A stretch of 64,000 nt of DNA. It comes from an uncultured Balneolaceae bacterium. GTDB lineage: Bacteria; Bacteroidota; Rhodothermia; Balneolales; Balneolaceae. Within the stretch, counting starts at the first letter, position 1. Each line of letters begins with the position of its first letter. The notes beneath the pieces were generated by a model. It searched no databases. It was not told where the DNA came from and saw nothing but the letters and a program-made list of their open reading frames with translations. The position numbers and the translations under genes are program-made. Below, in pieces: positions 11,434-40,793 of this stretch. Location of the stretch: assembly GCA_964490705.1 (NCBI GenBank), contig CAZBCG010000011.1:8834-72833 (forward strand), given 5' to 3'.

Positions 11434-13851
11434 CTATTTCTTTTGATAGATGTGATGACCATTGGAATAATACCGGATGGCCCCGTCGAGGCTGGTGAAC
11501 TGAATATTTGGGATAGATTTCCTCAGTCTTTTAACGGCCGCGGGATGAGGATGCCGAAACTGGTTTTCCCTGGCTAGTGATACGACACCTATTTGTGCGG
11601 TGGTTTGTTGTAGCAGGTTTGAGCTCGAGCTGGTTTTGCTACCGTGGTGCGGCACCTTCAGAAAATCGGTATCGACAAGCGTGGGAAAGTTGTGGATAAG
11701 TTGCCGTTCCTGACTTTGTTCCGCATCGCCTGTAAACAGGAATTCCGTTTCGCCATAAATAAGTTCAAGAATCAGAGAGCGATTATTGACGTTAGAGCTT
11801 GTGTTTTGCGGATCCGGTCCATAGGCAAAAATTCGGATGGCCGGATCCAGTGAGATTTGGTCGCCGGAAGAAAGTGATACAATCGGTATCTGTTTTTGGG
11901 CGGCTTTCTGTTGATAGGTTTGATACAGCTTAGAATCATATTGTGCCCCTGAATTATAAATGGTATCGATGGGAATTTGGGCGATAAGTTCGAGCATTCC
12001 GCCGATATGATCAGCATGCGGGTGCGAAAGAAAAACGGCATCCAGCTTGTCGATACCTTCTTCTTTGAGATGCGGGATGATGATATATTTGGCGCTGTTG
12101 TAATCGGGTTGCCAGCGCCCGGCATCCACCAGAAAGTGCTTGTTGTTGGGTGTTTTCACGAGCGCCGCATCGCCCTGGCCAACATCAAATACGGTCAGCT
12201 CTAGCCGTGCCGGCTGTAGTTTTTGGATAATTTTCGTACCCTGATTAACGCAGAGAAGCATCAGCAACACCGCCAGTACCTTCCAGCGCATTTTGGGGAT
12301 GGGTAGAGCGGCAATTAAAAAGATGATGGTTGTCCAGATGGCAAAAAAGAGCAGGCTCTCGATGTGGACTTGCACCCAGCTCCACGGCCAATTGGCGGCC
12401 ATATCCACAAACCAGTCGAGTGCTTGCAAGAAATATTCAATGGGGATATTGAGCGTTTGGGCGATATTCGGAAATGCCATGCCGAAAGGAAGCAAGACAA
12501 GTGCCAGGGGCACGGCCAATCCCAAAACGGGGACAACGAAGGCGTTGGCCAGCGGACCGACGATCGAAAATTCGCCAAAGTGGTAGGCCAGCAGCGGGAA
12601 AAGTCCCAGCTGCACGATAAAAGAGATCACCACGACCATCAGCGGCTGACCGTACCACCGGTATTGAATCCAAGCAGGCAATTGACGCGAGATCACGGGC
12701 GCGGTTAACAAAATAACATAGACGGCTGCGAATGAAAGCTGAAAGCCGATAGTAAATAGGTCGCCGGGATTAATGAGTAGAATGATTAACGCGGCAACGG
12801 CCGTCAGGTTTTTCGAATCGCGGACTTTGTGAAAAAGCTTGCCGTATGCCAGCAGTCCGCCGACCAGCGATGCGCGCGTGACCGAGGCTGGAAAGCCTGT
12901 CAATCCCGCATAGAAAAACAGAAAGCCAATGAGCAGAGCCAGTCCAATTTGTTTACCGTAGCGAAATGTCCAGAAAAATGGGATGGCCAGCCAGAATGGG
13001 GCAAGGATAAAGCCCACGTGTAATCCCGAAACCGCCATGATGTGAGACAACCCGGCTCGTGAAAACGCAATTTTATCTTCGCGTCCCAATTCATTTTTAT
13101 GGCCGATGAGTAAAGCTTTTGCCAATGGCGCAGTTTGTGGGCTAAAATTATTGTTGATGGCATTGAGTACGTGTTGACGATAAAAGCTCCAGCTCAAAAA
13201 TCGGGTTGTTTGATCTTCAATGGCATTGATTCGGACGATGCCCACTTGTGTGTAAATCCCGATGGAGGCCAGGTAATTTTTGTAATCGAACTGCGAGGGA
13301 TTTCGGGGTTCTTCCAATGGATATACAGTGGCTCGGAACGTCATATGATCACCCAGCGTAAGATTATCAGGCAAGGATAAATCATCGGGATTGAGCACGG
13401 CGCGCAGCTGATATGATTTTGACCAGGAAATGTCGCCGGGAAAGACGGTCGAATCCACCGTTACATCAATCTGATATTTACCCGTGCTTGTTTCTTTAAT
13501 TTGATGAACCTTGCCCGAAAAGGTGAGTTCTTGCCAAGTGTAGCTGTTAAGAACAGTGGCTTTTGGTGGGGGTTCCCGGTAATCAAAAAAGGAGTGCCAG
13601 GCGCTGCCAAAGGCAAGGATCAATCCTAGGTAGCAGGCGATGGCCGATCGTGACAGGCTGGGTCGGAAGTAGTGTTGGTGCAGCAGTTCAAATCCCACAT
13701 ACAACAAGGCAAATGATGCAACGATGGCAATCCATATGGGCGTCGAAAGATCAAAATGATAGTCCGCCAGAATGCCCGCGACCATCAGCAGCGCCAACCT
13801 GACGGCGGGATACGAAGCAAAGGGGAATCGATATTTTTGATGGATATCCAC
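11434..13851 (-). CDS. comEC: DNA uptake competence protein ComEC/Rec2
   Basis: 'GLSHIMAVSGLHVG', 'GFQLSF', metallo-beta-lactamase domain 'DVGQGDA', 'SHPHADH', 'KVPHHGS'. Confidence 0.96.
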   Translation of the reverse strand: MDIHQKYRFPFASYPAVRLALLMVAGILADYHFDLSTPIWIAIVASFALLYVGFELLHQHYFRPSLSRSAIACYLGLILAFGSAWHSFFDYREPPPKATVLNSYTWQELTFSGKVHQIKETSTGKYQIDVTVDSTVFPGDISWSKSYQLRAVLNPDDLSLPDNLTLGDHMTFRATVYPLEEPRNPSQFDYKNYLASIGIYTQVGIVRINAIEDQTTRFLSWSFYRQHVLNAINNNFSPQTAPLAKALLIGHKNELGREDKIAFSRAGLSHIMAVSGLHVGFILAPFWLAIPFFWTFRYGKQIGLALLIGFLFFYAGLTGFPASVTRASLVGGLLAYGKLFHKVRDSKNLTAVAALIILLINPGDLFTIGFQLSFAAVYVILLTAPVISRQLPAWIQYRWYGQPLMVVVISFIVQLGLFPLLAYHFGEFSIVGPLANAFVVPVLGLAVPLALVLLPFGMAFPNIAQTLNIPIEYFLQALDWFVDMAANWPWSWVQVHIESLLFFAIWTTIIFLIAALPIPKMRWKVLAVLLMLLCVNQGTKIIQKLQPARLELTVFDVGQGDAALVKTPNNKHFLVDAGRWQPDYNSAKYIIIPHLKEEGIDKLDAVFLSHPHADHIGGMLELIAQIPIDTIYNSGAQYDSKLYQTYQQKAAQKQIPIVSLSSGDQISLDPAIRIFAYGPDPQNTSSNVNNRSLILELIYGETEFLFTGDAEQSQERQLIHNFPTLVDTDFLKVPHHGSKTSSSSNLLQQTTAQIGVVSLARENQFRHPHPAAVKRLRKSIPNIQFTSLDGAIRYYSNGHHIYQKK

Positions 13852-14018
13852 ATAGGTATGACCGTTGAGCAGCCTAATCCTTACTTATTAAATTATGTTT
13901 CAGTAAAAAGATACGCTTTGAAATGGCGTTGTCGGTGCTTATAATTTTATCGCAGATCAGAATTGACAACTTTTCTGTGGATTAACAGAGCTGAAAACCG
14001 CAATTAAATGCTAAGAAT

Positions 14019-15043: not shown

Positions 15044-15128
15044 AAGTGTTAATGCTAGGAACGTGTTAATGTGTTAAGGAACAACCAAAAATGACTTAAT
15101 AGTAAAACGTTAACACATAAACACGTTT
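15044..15128. repeat. Inverted pair of degenerate octamer arrays (ACGTGTTA / TAACACGT), empty copy
   Basis: Left AACGTGTTAATGTGTTA pairs 16/17 with right TAACACATAAACACGTT; between convergent genes. Confidence 0.85.
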
Positions 15129-15132
15129 ACCC

Positions 15133-27351: not shown

Positions 27352-27439
27352 AGTAAAAAGTGAGAAGGCAGAAGTGAAAAAGTTTTTATCTCTGCCGTTT
27401 TACTTTTCACGTCTCACTTTTTGCTTCTCACTTTTTACT
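27352..27439. repeat. Inverted pair of degenerate heptamer arrays (AGTGAGA / TCTCACT)
   Basis: Left AGTAAAA AGTGAGA AGGCAGA AGTGAAA; right TCTGCCG TTTTACT TTTCACG TCTCACT TTTTGCT TCTCACT TTTTACT; outer 15 bp perfectly complementary. Confidence 0.88.
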
Positions 27440-27440
27440 T

Positions 27441-27854
27441 TTAGTAGTCGAAGCCCAATTCTCGCAGGTCAGCCAAAATATCTTCGCCGGGCGATTTGTC
27501 GGGCATAGTGTTGTAAATCCCCATAATCTGATTAATCTCAGAACGTGCCTTCTGGTTTTTAGGATTAATGTTCAACACTTTGATATACTGTTCCAGGGCC
27601 GAGGTCATGCGGTCGCGCATAGTGCTGTCTTCCGGGCCGCGATATTCAAGATACAAGCCATAATTCAAATAGGTTTTCTCTTTCAGGCGATCGAGGTTTT
27701 CGACTTCGCTGGCATCGGTGTTGTTGAGCAATTCGATGGCTTGCGTATAGCTGTCTTCGGCAATCAGCTGGTCGATCCGTTTGGGAACATCTTCTACAGA
27801 CTCACTGCAAGAGATAAAAAGCGTAACGAGAAATATCAGGGAAAGATAGCGCAT
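27441..27854 (-). CDS. Lipoprotein with TPR-like helices
   Basis: Lipobox FIS-C; 'ALEQYIKVLNINPKNQKA'. Confidence 0.8.
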   Translation of the reverse strand: MRYLSLIFLVTLFISCSESVEDVPKRIDQLIAEDSYTQAIELLNNTDASEVENLDRLKEKTYLNYGLYLEYRGPEDSTMRDRMTSALEQYIKVLNINPKNQKARSEINQIMGIYNTMPDKSPGEDILADLRELGFDY

Positions 27855-30380: not shown

Positions 30381-30391
30381 GAAAATCTATT

Positions 30392-30472
30392 CAGTTTGCA
30401 GTGAGCAGTGAACAGTAAACAGCAAGTCAAATCAACCAATCCTAAAATTGTTAATTGCTCACTGAATACTGC
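30392..30472. repeat. Inverted pair of degenerate heptamer arrays (CAGTGAG / CTCACTG)
   Basis: Left CAGTTTG CAGTGAG CAGTGAA CAGTAAA CAGCAAG; right AAAATTG TTAATTG CTCACTG AATACTG; 11 nt upstream of the arcA start. Confidence 0.8.
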
Positions 30473-35074: not shown

Positions 35075-36442
35075 TTAAAATCGGAGGGTAAACGTTGTCC
35101 CGGAATCTTCATCAGAAGTGACGGTAAGAGCCCCTCGATGTTTGCGCATAATTTGCCGCGACAGGCTCAGTCCAATTCCGGATCCGCCTCGGGATGTGGG
35201 CTGGCTGGTGCTGTAGAACGGAATAAAAATCTTCTGCTGGTTTTCCTCCTTGATGCCCGGTCCGTTATCGGAAACCTCAATAATAGGACGGCCTTCACTA
35301 TCAAACCGACCGGTGAGCGTTACAGTGGCATCAGCGGTATCTTCGAGTGCCCGAAAGGCATTTTTGGTTAAATTGATTAGTACCTGTTCAATGAGATCCG
35401 GGTCGGCAGTAATTTCCAGGGTTTCCGGATCGGTGCGGATGTTGACTGTTATATCTTGTGATTCGGCCTCTCCTTTATTGAGATTTTTAATCCTGCGCAA
35501 CATGTCGTCAACGCGGAAAAGCTCAAACTCGGGATCGGGAATCTGGGTAAAATCCCGATAGGAATTAACAAAGCGCATAAGTCCGTGGCTGCGATTATTG
35601 ATCGTTTCCAGGGCCTCTTTAACATCATCCAGCGATTCGGAATCAATATGATATTCCTCGTCGTTGTGCATCGCGCGCTGATTCAAGAGCATGCGAACGG
35701 TTTCAGAAAGCGAGGCAATGGGCGTAATCGAATTCATGATTTCGTGGGCCAGTACCTGCGTTAGATTTTGCCAGGCCTCCATTTCCTTTTCTTCGAGCTC
35801 GGTATGAATATTTTGAAACGAAACCAGCTTATAGTGCTCGTCATGCATCCGAAATTCGGTGGCCGAGATAGACAGTTGTAGCGTTTCATCATTGACGGAT
35901 ATCTGTGTGAGGGTCCGGTTGCCCCCCTCCAGTTCGGTGACTGTGTTGAACAGGGGCGCACTTATCTTTTTAAGGGCTGATACATTGCGAAGCGTGGGCA
36001 CATCAAACAGTCGTTTGGCAGCGGTATTAATCAGTTCAATCTCTCCATGGTGATTAAAAGAAATGAGTCCTACGCCTATATGCTGCACGACGGTTTGCAG
36101 GTAGCGGTAATTTTGATGCTTCTCGGCCCGTTCTTTCTTGAACTCATCAATAACCCGGTTAAAAGCATCATTCAATTCTTCGAACGAAGCTCCCAACCCG
36201 TGATCGGGAAATGCGCGCGAAAAATCGGAGTAGCGGATGGAGTTAAGGAAACGGCTGAGTTTTGCGTTTGTCTGTTCAACATAGCGGATGAGGTGCACAA
36301 CCAGCCCGATAATGACACCTGCAAGAATGGTTAGCGTGATATAATAGCTGGTTTGGAATAGCAGATACATCCACAGCGCCAGGCAGATGCTGAGCAGAAC
36401 TACGCGCCATATAACCCCGATGCGAAAGTGTTTAAAGATCAT
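35075..36442 (-). CDS. PAS-domain sensor histidine kinase (NtrY-like)
   Basis: Two TMs, H-box 'LAHEIMNSITPI', N-box 'QVLINLTKNA', 'DNGPGI', 'GSGIGLSL'. Confidence 0.95.
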   Translation of the reverse strand: MIFKHFRIGVIWRVVLLSICLALWMYLLFQTSYYITLTILAGVIIGLVVHLIRYVEQTNAKLSRFLNSIRYSDFSRAFPDHGLGASFEELNDAFNRVIDEFKKERAEKHQNYRYLQTVVQHIGVGLISFNHHGEIELINTAAKRLFDVPTLRNVSALKKISAPLFNTVTELEGGNRTLTQISVNDETLQLSISATEFRMHDEHYKLVSFQNIHTELEEKEMEAWQNLTQVLAHEIMNSITPIASLSETVRMLLNQRAMHNDEEYHIDSESLDDVKEALETINNRSHGLMRFVNSYRDFTQIPDPEFELFRVDDMLRRIKNLNKGEAESQDITVNIRTDPETLEITADPDLIEQVLINLTKNAFRALEDTADATVTLTGRFDSEGRPIIEVSDNGPGIKEENQQKIFIPFYSTSQPTSRGGSGIGLSLSRQIMRKHRGALTVTSDEDSGTTFTLRF

Positions 36443-37811
36443 ATTTTTCCATTCGTCGATATAATGATGCCCGGCTCAGGCCGAGTTCATCAGCAGATTT
36501 AGAAATATTCCGATCATGCTTGTCCAGTGCTTTGCGGATGACGATCTTCTCAACCTCTTCCAAATTATAGTCATCGAATGCCAGGCTCGATTGATCACCC
36601 TCAACCGAAGTCAATAGGAAATCATCCGCCTGCAATACATTGTGCTCGGTCATAATTACCGCGCGTTCTACCGCATGCTGAAGTTCGCGCACGTTGCCCG
36701 GCCACCGGTAGGTTTCCAGTTTATTGATGGCAGGTTCGGCCAGTGCTTGAATCTCTTTGTCGTATTTTTGGGCGTACTCATCCAGAAAGTGGTCGGCAAG
36801 CAGGGGAATGTCCACGGTGCGTTCGCGGAGGGGCGGTAAATGGATTTCGATGGTATTGATCCGATAGAGCAGATCCTGGCGGAATTCTTGATTCTGCACC
36901 ATCTGCTGTATGGGTTCGTTGGTGGCGCAGATCAGGCGGATATCGACCTCTCTGGATTTGTTTGAACCCACTCGCGTAATTGTTCGGGTTTCGATGGCCG
37001 ACAGTAATTTGGGTTGTAGCTGCAGGGGTAGATTCCCGATTTCATCCAGAAAAAGAGTGCCGCCCGAAGCCACTTCGAATCGTCCTGCGCGCGTTTCTTT
37101 GGCATCGGTGAAGGCACCCTTTTCGTGCCCAAAGAGCTCGCTTTCAAATAGATTTTCTGATATCGCTCCCATATCCACGCTGATGAATACTTCTTCGCTC
37201 CGGTCTGATCGTCGGTGCAGTGCGCGGGCCACCAGCTCTTTGCCGGTTCCGTTTTCGCCGGTGATAAGTACATTGGCATCGGTCTTGGCTACCTTTTCGA
37301 TGGTTTCAAACACTTCGGTCATAGCCGCACTCTTGCCGATTATATCCTGATAATGCTGGTCGATATCGGCACTGAGCTGCTTTTGTTGCGACTTGAGGAC
37401 CTCTACTTGCCGACGAGACTGGCTTAGATTTAGTGCGGAGTTGACCGTAGCAAGCAGTTTTTCGTTTTGCCAGGGCTTGAGCACAAAATTGGTGGCGCCC
37501 ATCTTAATTGCTTTCACGGCTTTTTCGACATCCCCATAAGCAGTAATAAGTACCACGGCAATGGACGAATCTATCTCTAATATTTTTTGCAGCCACTGGA
37601 ATCCTTCTTTGCCGCTGCTTACATCTTCAGTGAAATTCATATCCAGCAGCACTACATCGTAGCTGTTATTTTTTAACAGGTTGGGGATAGAACGAGGGTT
37701 CTGCTCAGTATCAACTTTGGCGACGTGCTGTTTTAAAAATAGGTTGGCGGCTTGTAGCACATCGTGGTCATCATCTACCACTAAAATATGTCCTTTATTT
37801 TTGTTGCTCAT
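36432..37811 (-). CDS. Sigma-54-dependent response regulator (NtrC family)
   Basis: Receiver 'VVDDD..LLDMNF', Walker A 'GENGTGKE', 'GAFTDA', 'LFLDEIG', 'WPGNVREL', Fis-type HTH. Confidence 0.97.
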   Translation of the reverse strand: MSNKNKGHILVVDDDHDVLQAANLFLKQHVAKVDTEQNPRSIPNLLKNNSYDVVLLDMNFTEDVSSGKEGFQWLQKILEIDSSIAVVLITAYGDVEKAVKAIKMGATNFVLKPWQNEKLLATVNSALNLSQSRRQVEVLKSQQKQLSADIDQHYQDIIGKSAAMTEVFETIEKVAKTDANVLITGENGTGKELVARALHRRSDRSEEVFISVDMGAISENLFESELFGHEKGAFTDAKETRAGRFEVASGGTLFLDEIGNLPLQLQPKLLSAIETRTITRVGSNKSREVDIRLICATNEPIQQMVQNQEFRQDLLYRINTIEIHLPPLRERTVDIPLLADHFLDEYAQKYDKEIQALAEPAINKLETYRWPGNVRELQHAVERAVIMTEHNVLQADDFLLTSVEGDQSSLAFDDYNLEEVEKIVIRKALDKHDRNISKSADELGLSRASLYRRMEKYDL

Positions 37812-37936: not shown

Positions 37937-37973
37937 TGTTCGATTTCGAACACTTCCTGCACGGCCTTGCACA
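37937..37973. promoter_or_regulatory. Tandem enhancer-binding-protein sites (TGT-N10-ACA)
   Basis: Palindromic TGTTCGATTTCGAACA and degenerate TGCACGGCCTTGCACA starting 21 bp apart; same layout at 40757. Confidence 0.75.
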
Positions 37974-38084: not shown

Positions 38085-39374
38085 ATGTCACAAAGTGATG
38101 ACGGTCGCATTTCCAGTAAGGGAATGGACAAAAAAATTGAAAAGAAAACCTGGACCACAAAGCATATTGCCATGGCGGTAGGCGGGGTGGCCATTTTAGC
38201 AGTGTTGTTATATGGTTTCATTTTTATGGATACCCGCTCTACACTGAATGTCGATCGGGATAAAATTACAGTGAGCACCGTACAGGAAGATTCTTTTCAG
38301 AAGTTTATTCAGGTGACCGGAACCATCCAGCCGATTCAAACGATCTATCTGGATGCCATCGAAGGCGGCGTTGTGGAAGAGATTTACAAAGAATCGGGTA
38401 CGATGGTGAATCAAGGGGATACTGTGCTTACGCTTTCCAATTCGGATCTGCGACTGCGGGTGCTGCAGCAGAGCTCGGCTATTTATGATCAGATCAATCA
38501 AACAAGGAATTCGCGGCTCAATATTGAACAAAACTCCCTGAGTTTAAAAGAGCGGCTGGCGAATGCAAAAAACCAGCTGGAGATTACAAGATCGACATAT
38601 CAGCGACAGAAGAAACTGCATGAACAAAACCTGGTTGCCGAGCAGGCCTTTTTGGAAGCGAAAGAGAATTATGAATATCAGAAAAAGCGTCATTCACTGA
38701 TTTATGAGTCCTTTAAGCAAGATTCGCTGCAGTCCAGTCAGCAGCTTCAGCAGATCGATCGGTCGCTCGATCGCATGTGGCGGAGTCTCGAGGCCGTGCA
38801 GGGTATTTTGGATCGCCTGATCGTGACGGCACCCATATCGGGACAGCTTTCTACCATTGAGCTTAATCCGGGGCAGTCGATATCATCCGGAGAGCGCATC
38901 GGCCAAGTAGATATTCTGGACAGTTACAAAGTTCGGGTGGGGATTGACGAGTATCATCTGTCACGCATTACAACCGGACTTCGCGGCTCTTTCGATTTTA
39001 ACGGACAAACCCACGAGCTGGAGATTACAAAAGTGTATCCCGTAGTAGAAAATGGACAATTCGAGGTAGATATGGAATTTGTTAGTGAAGCACCATCCGG
39101 ATTAACGCGCGGACAAACGGTCCGTATTCGCCTGGAGCTGGGTGGTTCTTCGAAAGCCGTATTGCTGGCACGCGGTGGATTTTATCAGGCTACAGGGGGT
39201 AACTGGGTGTATCGCCTGAGTGATGACGGAGAACGTGCAGTCAGGCACCAAGTGCAGCTGGGGCGACAAAATCCCGATTATTTTGAAGTACTTTCGGGCC
39301 TGCAGCCGGGTGACAAAATTATCACCAGCAGCTATGATACGTTTGGGGGTAACGAGGTCTTGAATCTGGAGTGA
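38085..39374 (+). CDS. Periplasmic adaptor (HlyD/MacA-like) of ABC exporter
   Basis: N-terminal TM, lipoyl halves 'EGGVVEEI..G..V..GD' and 'TAPISGQL', helical hairpin, 'EVLSGLQPGDKII'. Confidence 0.93.
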   Translation: MSQSDDGRISSKGMDKKIEKKTWTTKHIAMAVGGVAILAVLLYGFIFMDTRSTLNVDRDKITVSTVQEDSFQKFIQVTGTIQPIQTIYLDAIEGGVVEEIYKESGTMVNQGDTVLTLSNSDLRLRVLQQSSAIYDQINQTRNSRLNIEQNSLSLKERLANAKNQLEITRSTYQRQKKLHEQNLVAEQAFLEAKENYEYQKKRHSLIYESFKQDSLQSSQQLQQIDRSLDRMWRSLEAVQGILDRLIVTAPISGQLSTIELNPGQSISSGERIGQVDILDSYKVRVGIDEYHLSRITTGLRGSFDFNGQTHELEITKVYPVVENGQFEVDMEFVSEAPSGLTRGQTVRIRLELGGSSKAVLLARGGFYQATGGNWVYRLSDDGERAVRHQVQLGRQNPDYFEVLSGLQPGDKIITSSYDTFGGNEVLNLE

Positions 39375-39384
39375 GTTTTGGGAT

Positions 39385-39424
39385 GAGTGTGGAAGTGTTT
39401 AAGTGTTAACGTGTTAATGTTCTA
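39385..39424. repeat. Left octamer array flanking the four-helix-bundle gene
   Basis: GAGTGTGG AAGTGTTT AAGTGTTA ACGTGTTA ATGTTCTA. Confidence 0.88.
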
Positions 39425-39428
39425 GGTA

Positions 39429-39863
39429 ATGGCCAAGATTGATAAATATGAAGATCTGCAATGCTGGCAGAAATCTCGGAAGTTAGTCAATTGTGTTTTT
39501 GATTTAATAGAAACACCGAGCATGAAAAATGAATATGCGTTAGCGGATCAGTTAAAACGGGCAAGTATTTCTGTTATGACAAATATAGCAGAAGGGTTCA
39601 ACAGGTATCACAAAAAGGATTTTATTCGTTTTTTAGATTATGCCCAGAGTTCAGCCCAGGAAGTCAAAAGTTTGTTATACATTGTTGCTGACAGAAAGAT
39701 GGCTGACAATGGCAAAGTGGAGGAAATACAGAATGATTGTGATCACTGCCAAGCATTGATACTGGCATTATTAAAACACATCAAAAGTACATTGAATAAA
39801 AATTCGGGCAAGACCAGGGAATCAGATGTTTATTATCTGGCTGAAGAACTGGTCGCGAAATAG
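39429..39863 (+). CDS. Four-helix-bundle protein (23S rRNA IVS protein / Avd-like family)
   Basis: 'YEDLQCWQKS', 'LADQLKRASISVMTNIAEGF', 'FIRFLDYAQSSAQEV' family signature. Confidence 0.93.
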   Translation: MAKIDKYEDLQCWQKSRKLVNCVFDLIETPSMKNEYALADQLKRASISVMTNIAEGFNRYHKKDFIRFLDYAQSSAQEVKSLLYIVADRKMADNGKVEEIQNDCDHCQALILALLKHIKSTLNKNSGKTRESDVYYLAEELVAK

Positions 39864-39868
39864 CAACT

Positions 39869-39908
39869 TGTTACGTAAACACGTTAACACTTACACACAT
39901 TAAAAACG
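39869..39908. repeat. Right (inverted) octamer array flanking the four-helix-bundle gene
   Basis: TGTTACGT AAACACGT TAACACTT ACACACAT; 39878-39893 is the exact reverse complement of 39400-39415. Confidence 0.88.
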
Positions 39909-39915
39909 TCACGCT

Positions 39916-40605
39916 ATGATTAAAACGAAAAACCTCAAGAAGATATATACGACTGATGAAGTTGAGACCACAGCGCTAAACAACGTCAATCTCGAGATCA
40001 GCGAAGGAGAATTTTGTGCGATTATGGGCCCTTCGGGATGCGGGAAGTCAACATTGCTAAACGTGTTGGGCCTGCTCGATAATCCCACCGAGGGAGAATA
40101 TCACTTTATGGATTACGAGGTCTCAAACAAATCCGAACGCGAGCGTGCCCAACTTCGGAAAGGCAATATCGGTTTCGTTTTTCAGAGCTTTAATCTTATT
40201 GATGAGCTGACCGTGTTTGAAAATGTAGAGCTGCCCTTATTGTATTTGGGAGCACCGGCCCAAGAGCGTAAAGAAAAAGCAGAAGCGGCGCTTGAGCGCA
40301 TGAGTATGATGCACCGACGCAATCACTTTCCGCAGCAGCTTTCCGGCGGACAGCAACAGCGGGTGGCGATTGCAAGAGCGGTCGTAGCCGATGCAAAATT
40401 AATTCTGGCCGATGAGCCGACGGGTAATCTCGATTCCGATCACGGTGATGAAGTGATGAAACTGCTGGCCGAACTCAACGAGCAGGGCACCACCATCGTA
40501 ATGGTAACACACTCTCCGCACGATGCCGATTACGCCCGCCGCGTTATTCATCTCTTTGATGGCAATATTGTGACGGAAAATATGCAGGAAGGATTTCACG
40601 TTTGA
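39916..40605 (+). CDS. ABC transporter ATP-binding protein (MacB/LolD-like)
   Basis: 'GPSGCGKST', 'GFVFQSFNL', '[14 protein letters not shown]', '[10 protein letters not shown]', 'VTH'. Confidence 0.97.
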
Positions 40606-40617
40606 TTTCTGAGCTTT

Positions 40618-40697
40618 TAACGTGTTAAGGTACCTGATGTGTTAACGTGTAGATGTGTTTGGCAACCAACTTTAACACACAAGCACGTTAACACTTT
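40618..40697. repeat. Inverted pair of degenerate octamer arrays (ACGTGTTA / TAACACGT), empty copy
   Basis: Left ACGTGTTA..ATGTGTTA ACGTGTAG ATGTGTTT; right TAACACAC AAGCACGT TAACACTT. Confidence 0.85.
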
Positions 40698-40756: not shown

Positions 40757-40793
40757 TGTTCGATTTCGCACATCCCTTGTTTTGAATCGGACA
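40757..40793. promoter_or_regulatory. Tandem enhancer-binding-protein sites (TGT-N10-ACA)
   Basis: TGTTCGATTTCGCACA (15/16 identical to the 37937 site) and TGTTTTGAATCGGACA starting 21 bp apart. Confidence 0.78.

Follow-up and report, generated by a model that had tools for sequence, protein, structure and literature searches.

A repeat-bracketed four-helix-bundle gene in an exporter operon of an uncultured Balneolaceae bacterium, a cassette likely exchanged between host alleles as DNA

The window, meaning the whole 64,000-nt stretch of DNA analysed here, derives from an uncultured Balneolaceae bacterium and carries an exporter operon in which profile matches identify an MFP adaptor, a MacB-type ATPase and FtsX/MacB permeases (Table 1). 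The original prediction, made from the letters alone, had placed a 144-aa gene between the adaptor and ATPase genes, enclosed by tandem 8-mer arrays in opposite orientation with a perfect 16-bp inverted repeat, and all of this was confirmed: TRF reports period-8 arrays on both sides (39393-39417 and 39873-39903), and the two 16-bp cores are exact reverse complements. The gene is also more AT-rich than its neighbours, as had been proposed, with a GC of 0.37 (GC3 0.39) against 0.48-0.49 (GC3 0.51-0.53). Two figures needed correction. The arrays do lie close on both sides, but the distance is not about 6 nt, the extended arms being separated from the ATG by 8 nt and from the stop by 9 nt, with the 16-bp core 13-14 nt away; similarly, the inverted repeat extends beyond its core, with a best ungapped match of 20/21 or 23/26 rather than 20/22. 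The extended arms (39395-39420 and 39873-39898) are 26 nt long and 88% complementary, and the arm score of the cassette at 39385-39908 is 18.5, a value matched by 0 of 400 ordinary genes and by 0.3% of 600 cross-locus pairs. The site is the adaptor/ATPase junction of a protein-coding operon and not a 23S rRNA gene. No transposase is encoded in the cassette, the sole ORF being TIGR02436, and the absence of transposase and reverse transcriptase genes noted for the window extends, for the two families searched, to the whole 96.5%-complete genome, which gives no RVT_1 or Y1 transposase match. No direct repeat of at least 10 nt brackets the cassette, and the empty alleles described below are too diverged to define an insertion site. 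Elsewhere in the window, heptamer arrays of other unit families occur at 30390-30471, a gene-less hairpin, and at 27398-27442, and matching palindromic GTTCGATTTCG boxes precede the adaptor gene and the first permease gene (approximately 37937-37953 and 40757-40772) and might be bound by the neighbouring sigma-54-type response regulator (36432-37811).

Table 1. Features of the window that bear on the cassette
Feature	Position	Strand	Basis
comEC, DNA uptake channel, in the gene set of the motif	11434-13851	-	TIGR00361 above cut-off
TGTAAGG-N16-GGTC(T/A)TAC motif, 22 bits, directly upstream of comEC	13853-13888	-	matrix
Second gene-less hairpin in the window, same octamer family	15045-15130	.	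array search
Periplasmic adaptor (MFP) gene, upstream host flank	38085-39374	+	TIGR01730 above cut-off
Left arm, tandem GTGTT-core octamers; 16-bp core 39400-39415	39386-39420	+	repeat analysis
Four-helix-bundle gene, lineage A, 144 aa, without internal promoter motif	39429-39863	+	TIGR02436/PF05635
Right arm, inverted octamer array; 16-bp core 39878-39893	39873-39903	-	repeat analysis
ABC ATPase gene (MacB-type), downstream host flank	39916-40605	+	profile match
Gene-less hairpin, same octamer family, ATPase-permease junction	40614-40697	.	array search

The 144-aa protein belongs to a family that is common among relatives of the host, TIGR02436 genes being present in 38 of 41 related genomes with up to 22 copies. 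It scores 105 bits against TIGR02436 (cut-off 24) and 108 bits against PF05635 (cut-off 33.8), the latter being its only Pfam match, and a GIY-YIG nuclease domain is absent. The predicted model (pLDDT 88.8) consists of four long helices in an Xcc0516-like fold, superposing on Xcc0516 (2GSC) with a Z of 18.6 and an rmsd of 1.2 over 112 residues, and on BT_0352 with a Z of 15.5. A relation to Avd had been proposed as well. Here the fold match to Xcc0516 is clear, whereas that to Avd (PDB 4DWL, 8UB7) is weaker, its Z of 12.9-13.6 at 7-8% identity lying near the 12.6-12.8 given by unrelated helical bundles, and a profile search of PDB sequences with the 144-aa protein did not reach Avd. Avd is a nucleic-acid-binding protein of ring form, and 2GSC and 2RLD list five chains each; the 144-aa protein is a putative Avd-like ring that would likely recognize the repeat unit of its own cassette. 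Purifying selection acts on the gene among lineage A orthologues (see below), with a dN/dS of 0.06-0.10 in four unsaturated pairs, the three pairs that include the window copy being saturated.

Flanking arrays turned out to be a trait of the family. The host genome holds seven TIGR02436 genes, each of which is flanked on both sides, by eye, by its own 7-/8-mer unit, and five of which reach the arm-score threshold of 12. A broader set of 118 family loci was composed of these seven genes, the junction loci and the top-scoring of 271 TIGR02436 matches, with one locus containing N dropped; loci were picked by HMM score and not by repeats, and the orthologues among them are not independent. Inverted arms scoring at least 12 were found at 91 of the 118, but at only 1.25% of 400 ordinary genes and in 3.2% of 600 cross-locus pairs, and arrays in direct orientation reached that score at 12 of the 118, in agreement with the expectation that the paralogues would be surrounded by inverted 7/8-mer arrays. 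The period is 7 in 65 of the armed loci, 8 in 24 and 6 in two. At four loci (L134, L140, L116, L123) direct orientation gives the flanking arrays a better score than inverted orientation does, or each side of the gene bears a full hairpin. There is no terminal sequence conserved across copies, the unit being different for each of the seven paralogues and between lineages. The repeat unit follows the protein clade across different sites. Among different-site pairs, as called by a rough k-mer test, arm similarity is 0.50 at a protein identity of at least 60% versus 0.04-0.05 below 50%, and 0 of 2000 permutations reach the value obtained for pairs of at least 50% identity, although p-values throughout are overstated given that family loci are related by descent. 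Moreover, the two arms of one cassette resemble each other more than they resemble the arms of orthologues at 17 of 22 loci of lineage B (p 0.002) and 8 of 9 loci of lineage A (p 0.098), indicating that pairing or copying between arms continues, whether on RNA or on single-stranded DNA. Hairpins of the same build also occur without a gene, 37 of them in the host genome (one array pair, C20, with a span of 293 nt, was excluded), none within a long open frame and 33 with the G-rich arm first, while the 108 and 80 arrays of block-shuffled genomes formed no inverted pair.

The allele history of the adaptor-ATPase junction was reconstructed from 96 junctions, namely 28, a further 8 recruited through the 144-aa protein, which inflates lineage A, and 60 of the 119 listed. 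Two further related loci (L036 and L037) belong to the 118-locus set and stand outside this count as possible duplicates, and L038 is a weak partial match. Empty and filled alleles both exist, as the junction alignment suggested in the original prediction had been meant to reveal: 53 junctions lack an intact family gene, among them short spacers, remnants (e.g., G007, G016), gene-less hairpins and two unrelated 1.4-kb inserts, and the other 43 carry family genes of five unrelated cassette lineages, in either orientation and in some cases stacked (B antisense 24, A 10, E 4, C 2, D 1, a C+A stack 1, an E+A stack 1). Lineage A, to which the window copy belongs, is sense and built from GTGTT-core octamers, and lineage B is antisense with a TCAGC heptamer. 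A host tree built by a quick method from 94 rows, without G029 and G251, requires 28 state changes, and 11 if only A versus not-A is scored. Nearly identical host alleles can carry different cassettes, as do G097, with A, and G101, with B: their adaptor DNA is identical over 600 nt and falls to 91% beside the junction (100, 100, 100, 100, 97, 97, 98 and 91% per 150-nt bin), and their ATPase genes are 92-98% identical, where most other pairs of the group show approximately 76-92%. Mosaic alleles are also present in the assemblies. In G118, more than 50 nt of a B allele are followed by a switch, at a microhomology of approximately 16/20, to a second adaptor 3′ end plus an A cassette; and in G108, a B cassette is terminated by an A right arm. 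G119 corresponds to G105 without its gene, which was deleted between repeat units so that a hairpin and a motif remnant stay. Compared as sequences, the mosaics and the A/B swap look as if alleles had been replaced through recombination that found its anchor in the flanking genes and now and then ended in an illegitimate join. Conjugation or transduction could also account for the swaps, as could a stacked ancestor that lost different cassettes in different descendants. In G002 and G006, B-lineage cassettes (L039, L045) lie approximately 7 kb upstream of the adaptor and not at the junction, suggesting local moves within the neighbourhood. Repeats that look similar to those beside the GxxExxY genes (see below) form gene-less hairpins at the same junction in G021, G098, G099, G111 and G143. 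An association between an A cassette and an A-type hairpin after the ATPase gene (7 of 11 versus 2 of 80; for B, 5 of 23 versus 4 of 68) was tried and rejected; independent pairs gave 3.9 against 0.1 with a median p of 0.125, the patterns had been set after the data were seen, and linkage alone could explain it.

The homologues of lineage A point to a long residence at the junction. They amount to 38 matches in 283 genomes, and among the 30 that were read, the seven closest (64-69%) and four others (46-52%) sit at the adaptor-ATPase junction, and 18 (42-51%) sit at another site with arms of GTGTT-core octamers. The seven closest diverge much as the adaptor does (64-77%), which, together with their common position, fits a long vertical residence; by these divergences, lineage A is old at the junction. 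It might be asked whether the gene is simply an ordinary, vertically inherited and often-lost host gene, whose arrays arose by slippage and hairpin correction and have no role of their own. The purifying selection, the host-like divergence of lineage A and the remnant alleles would all suit such a gene, but five unrelated lineages in two orientations alternate at one junction between near-identical hosts, the unit tracks the protein across sites and the shuffled genomes contain no inverted array pairs, so that we regard this explanation as very unlikely. The reading of the locus as a cassette, on the other hand, gained support from the coexistence of empty and filled alleles, from the inverted arrays at paralogues and from the joint occurrence of protein clade and unit at different sites.

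Many cassettes are further distinguished by a two-box motif upstream of the gene. Written as TGTAAG-N17-GTCTTA, it has 17 exact occurrences in the host genome at spacing 17 and 0-1 at the other spacings between 10 and 25. A matrix trained on 43 sites taken only from the cassettes of other genomes finds 21 sites of at least 22 bits and 25 of at least 15 bits in the host genome, compared to 0-8 of at least 15 bits for column-shuffled matrices. Four of the 21 sites precede family genes, and with a fifth paralogue scoring 17, five of the seven paralogues bear the motif; one paralogue (G000:C6:138467-138880) has an internal stop codon with its motif intact. Among the 17 other motif-led genes, 12 are comEC, comEA, a comF-like gene (below cut-off), comM/YifB, radC, ssb, recN, an integron integrase and a fragment of one, a GIY-YIG gene and two GxxExxY genes, and the remaining five are unnamed or unrelated to DNA uptake. 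The pattern TGTAAGG-N16-GGTCTTACT would be a competence/recombination regulon motif that is apparently undescribed. Several members of this set have repeats of their own: the GIY-YIG gene (G000:C12:31256-31564, L160) has palindromic repeat flanks and is an Ssn-like element, the GxxExxY genes (G000:C10:86376-86735, C13:10788-11155 and C1:341995-342357) are led by the motif or directly follow radC and carry short inverted repeats of their own, the one on C13 being broken, and at G000:C4:232320-233745 (L157, L162) the integron integrase is followed by a second motif-led, N-terminal integrase fragment. As a phylum-wide signal the motif was rejected, since its strict form occurred in 6 of the 61 genomes of a phylum-wide draw, all in the host's own family. 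It was also absent before dprA and upstream of all 16 Sigma70_r2 genes, and one cassette, read from sequence, stands between the motif and a recA-like gene.

Within the family, the motif precedes 51 of the 118 cassettes as against 7 of 1552 long ORFs, it accompanies 12 of 12 cassettes antisense to both neighbours versus 9 of 32 co-oriented ones, and in 29 of 36 motif-bearing cassettes it is located inside the left arm. Neither the window copy nor its operon has it (best 2 bits and -6 bits), and the link to competence therefore holds by family and not by locus. The seven closest orthologues likewise lack it, except for one loose pattern match inside an array, and the four more distant orthologues at the junction retain the TGTAAGG half, two of the four passing the pattern, which suggests that the motif was likely lost in the sub-lineage of the window copy. 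The two-box layout with a 16-17-nt spacer presumably points to an ECF-type promoter, with a palindromic regulator site as the alternative. From its sequence and gene set, we infer that the motif may be an alternative-sigma promoter switched on with competence; a set including recN, ssb, radC and an integrase could fit an SOS-like regulon as well.

A rival proposal has the cassette act at the RNA level. According to it, the gene would be an mRNA intervening sequence: RNase III would cut the arm stem and release the gene, thereby splitting, rather than splicing, the message and tuning the adaptor relative to the ATPase. Indeed, in the predicted fold of the sense RNA, MFE and centroid alike, the arms pair and enclose the ORF (z -2.7), the arm duplex is more stable in the sense strand than in the opposite one (-39.8 versus -30.0 kcal/mol), the arms end 8 and 12 nt from the two start codons, and the host genome contains an RNase III gene, for whose product cleavage of a 16-bp stem is possible. 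A precedent is Coxiella's intervening sequence (IVS), whose 28-bp stem has heptamer repeats and undergoes RNase III cleavage in vitro according to the consulted part of its description (PMC4990558). The arms, however, show no significant excess of the mismatches tolerated in RNA, with 79 G·U versus 61 A·C (p 0.15) overall and 17 versus 12, at low power, in co-oriented cassettes. Antisense cassettes occupy the same junction, some family loci have direct instead of inverted arrays (12 of the 118 score at least 12 in direct orientation), and a gene whose motif falls within the left arm would be transcribed without that arm. Excision from mRNA or self-regulation, as proposed in the original prediction, finds no support as the main function, and we consider the intervening-sequence account unlikely. 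It is likely instead that the cassette moves as DNA by host recombination.

Mobility as DNA would call for a function supplied in trans, a part of the earlier idea that is retained, but a transposase is a less likely candidate than host recombination. An element of the MITE or integron type, moved by a transposase or by an integron integrase acting on a single-stranded hairpin, would explain why terminal inverted arms enclose both gene and motif, why one lineage is found at two sites, and why gene-less hairpins are numerous; furthermore, an integron integrase above cut-off belongs to the motif-led set. It is at odds with the lack of RVT_1 and Y1_Tnp matches in the genome and of direct repeats of at least 10 nt around the cassette, with arm units that differ by lineage and hence provide no common end sequence, with the long site fidelity of the 11 other junction loci among the closest homologues, and with the location of the integrase on a different contig, and we judge it quite unlikely.

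We therefore favour, by a modest degree of confidence, the view that the window copy is an old, promoter-less representative of a widespread cassette which is exchanged between host alleles as DNA by host recombination, probably during natural transformation. In this scenario, the motif would serve as an alternative-sigma promoter active during competence; incoming single-stranded DNA would find a homologous anchor in the adaptor or the ATPase gene, both of them conserved; and the anchored DNA would insert into, replace or partly replace the junction, sometimes ending at a microhomology. The arms would pair in single-stranded DNA and in this way stay matched, the predicted Avd-like ring protein would bind its own repeat unit, and deletion between repeat units would leave gene-less hairpins. 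The window copy, having lost the motif, would be expressed by read-through from the promoter of the exporter operon. Several observations speak against this scenario: the motif is missing from the window copy, before dprA and before the sigma-factor genes, five motif-led genes have no tie to DNA uptake, the closest homologues have the look of vertical inheritance, and contigs from 4 of the 8 listed sequencing runs show no joint that skips the cassette, although this shows presence only and the best of these runs may itself be the source of the window DNA. A more tentative and rather doubtful extension is that the cassettes are selfish passengers of natural transformation, in which a ring protein made during competence would recognize the 7/8-base unit of its cassette on single-stranded DNA entering the cell and tilt recombination toward that cassette, rival lineages competing for operon junctions and seeding cognate gene-less hairpins nearby.

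In a literature search covering openly accessible main texts, neither the cassette class outside rRNA nor its link to competence turned up in any paper. What the adaptor-ATPase locus adds is direct evidence of allele swap and mosaics, and of motif loss inside an operon. No function is known for the common TIGR02436 genes, and there is no agreement on where bacterial heptamer arrays come from. The junction amounts to a natural experiment within one bacterial family, with two alternative cassettes, empties, stacks and mosaics between near-identical flanks, and protein-repeat specificity (the A protein on A versus B repeats) as well as transformation bias are directly testable. If exchange as DNA is correct, these are mobile cassettes without a transposase or integrase of their own; if the selfish extension is also correct, a very large orphan family would gain a function, and the origin of bacterial heptamer/octamer arrays and of ORF-bearing rRNA intervening sequences would be explained.

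Compared with known systems, the cassette resembles an IVS in build and Ssn/NTS elements in logic, and it is a member of neither, nor of DGRs (diversity-generating retroelements) or IS/MITE elements. With the 23S IVS of Coxiella burnetii that encodes S23p, as characterized in the portion of PMC4990558 consulted, it shares the protein family, a terminal inverted stem, tandem short repeats by the ORF, low GC and patchy presence. In contrast to that IVS, it is placed between protein-coding genes, its units are octamers, its ORF is conserved, and it has relatives in both orientations with a motif of their own, and a role of RNase III is known for the IVS alone. The predicted protein fold resembles the four-helix bundle of the Avd of DGRs at a Z near the helical-bundle background, and Avd is related to PF05635 according to the relevant part of PMC10053308; unlike a DGR, the host genome, 96.5% complete, has 0 PF00078 (reverse transcriptase) matches. 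The arms are intergenic and tandem like the heptamer repeats of Xanthomonas, Nostoc and Beggiatoaceae, which in Xanthomonas often form convergent pairs (PMC4692102, PMC4679880), and the main texts of these two papers mention neither a four-helix protein nor an intervening sequence. Closer in logic are the repeat-gene-repeat Ssn (SsnA/NTS) elements, which, in the sections of PMC11893778 consulted, combine a small single-domain gene with its own hairpin repeats and gene-less copies elsewhere and are tied to single-stranded DNA in natural transformation; the GIY-YIG gene with palindromic flanks in the motif-led set of the host genome provides a link to them. The cassette differs from Ssn in that its protein is an all-helical bundle without known nuclease fold, that its arms are lineage-specific tandem 7/8-mers, and that it is known from sequence alone. 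Finally, homology-facilitated illegitimate recombination in natural transformation, a process of the host and not an element, joins one homologous anchor to a microhomology, as set out in the part of PMC6382021 consulted, and the G118 mosaic follows this pattern of anchor plus microhomology; two alleles suggest that the process may have acted at the junction.
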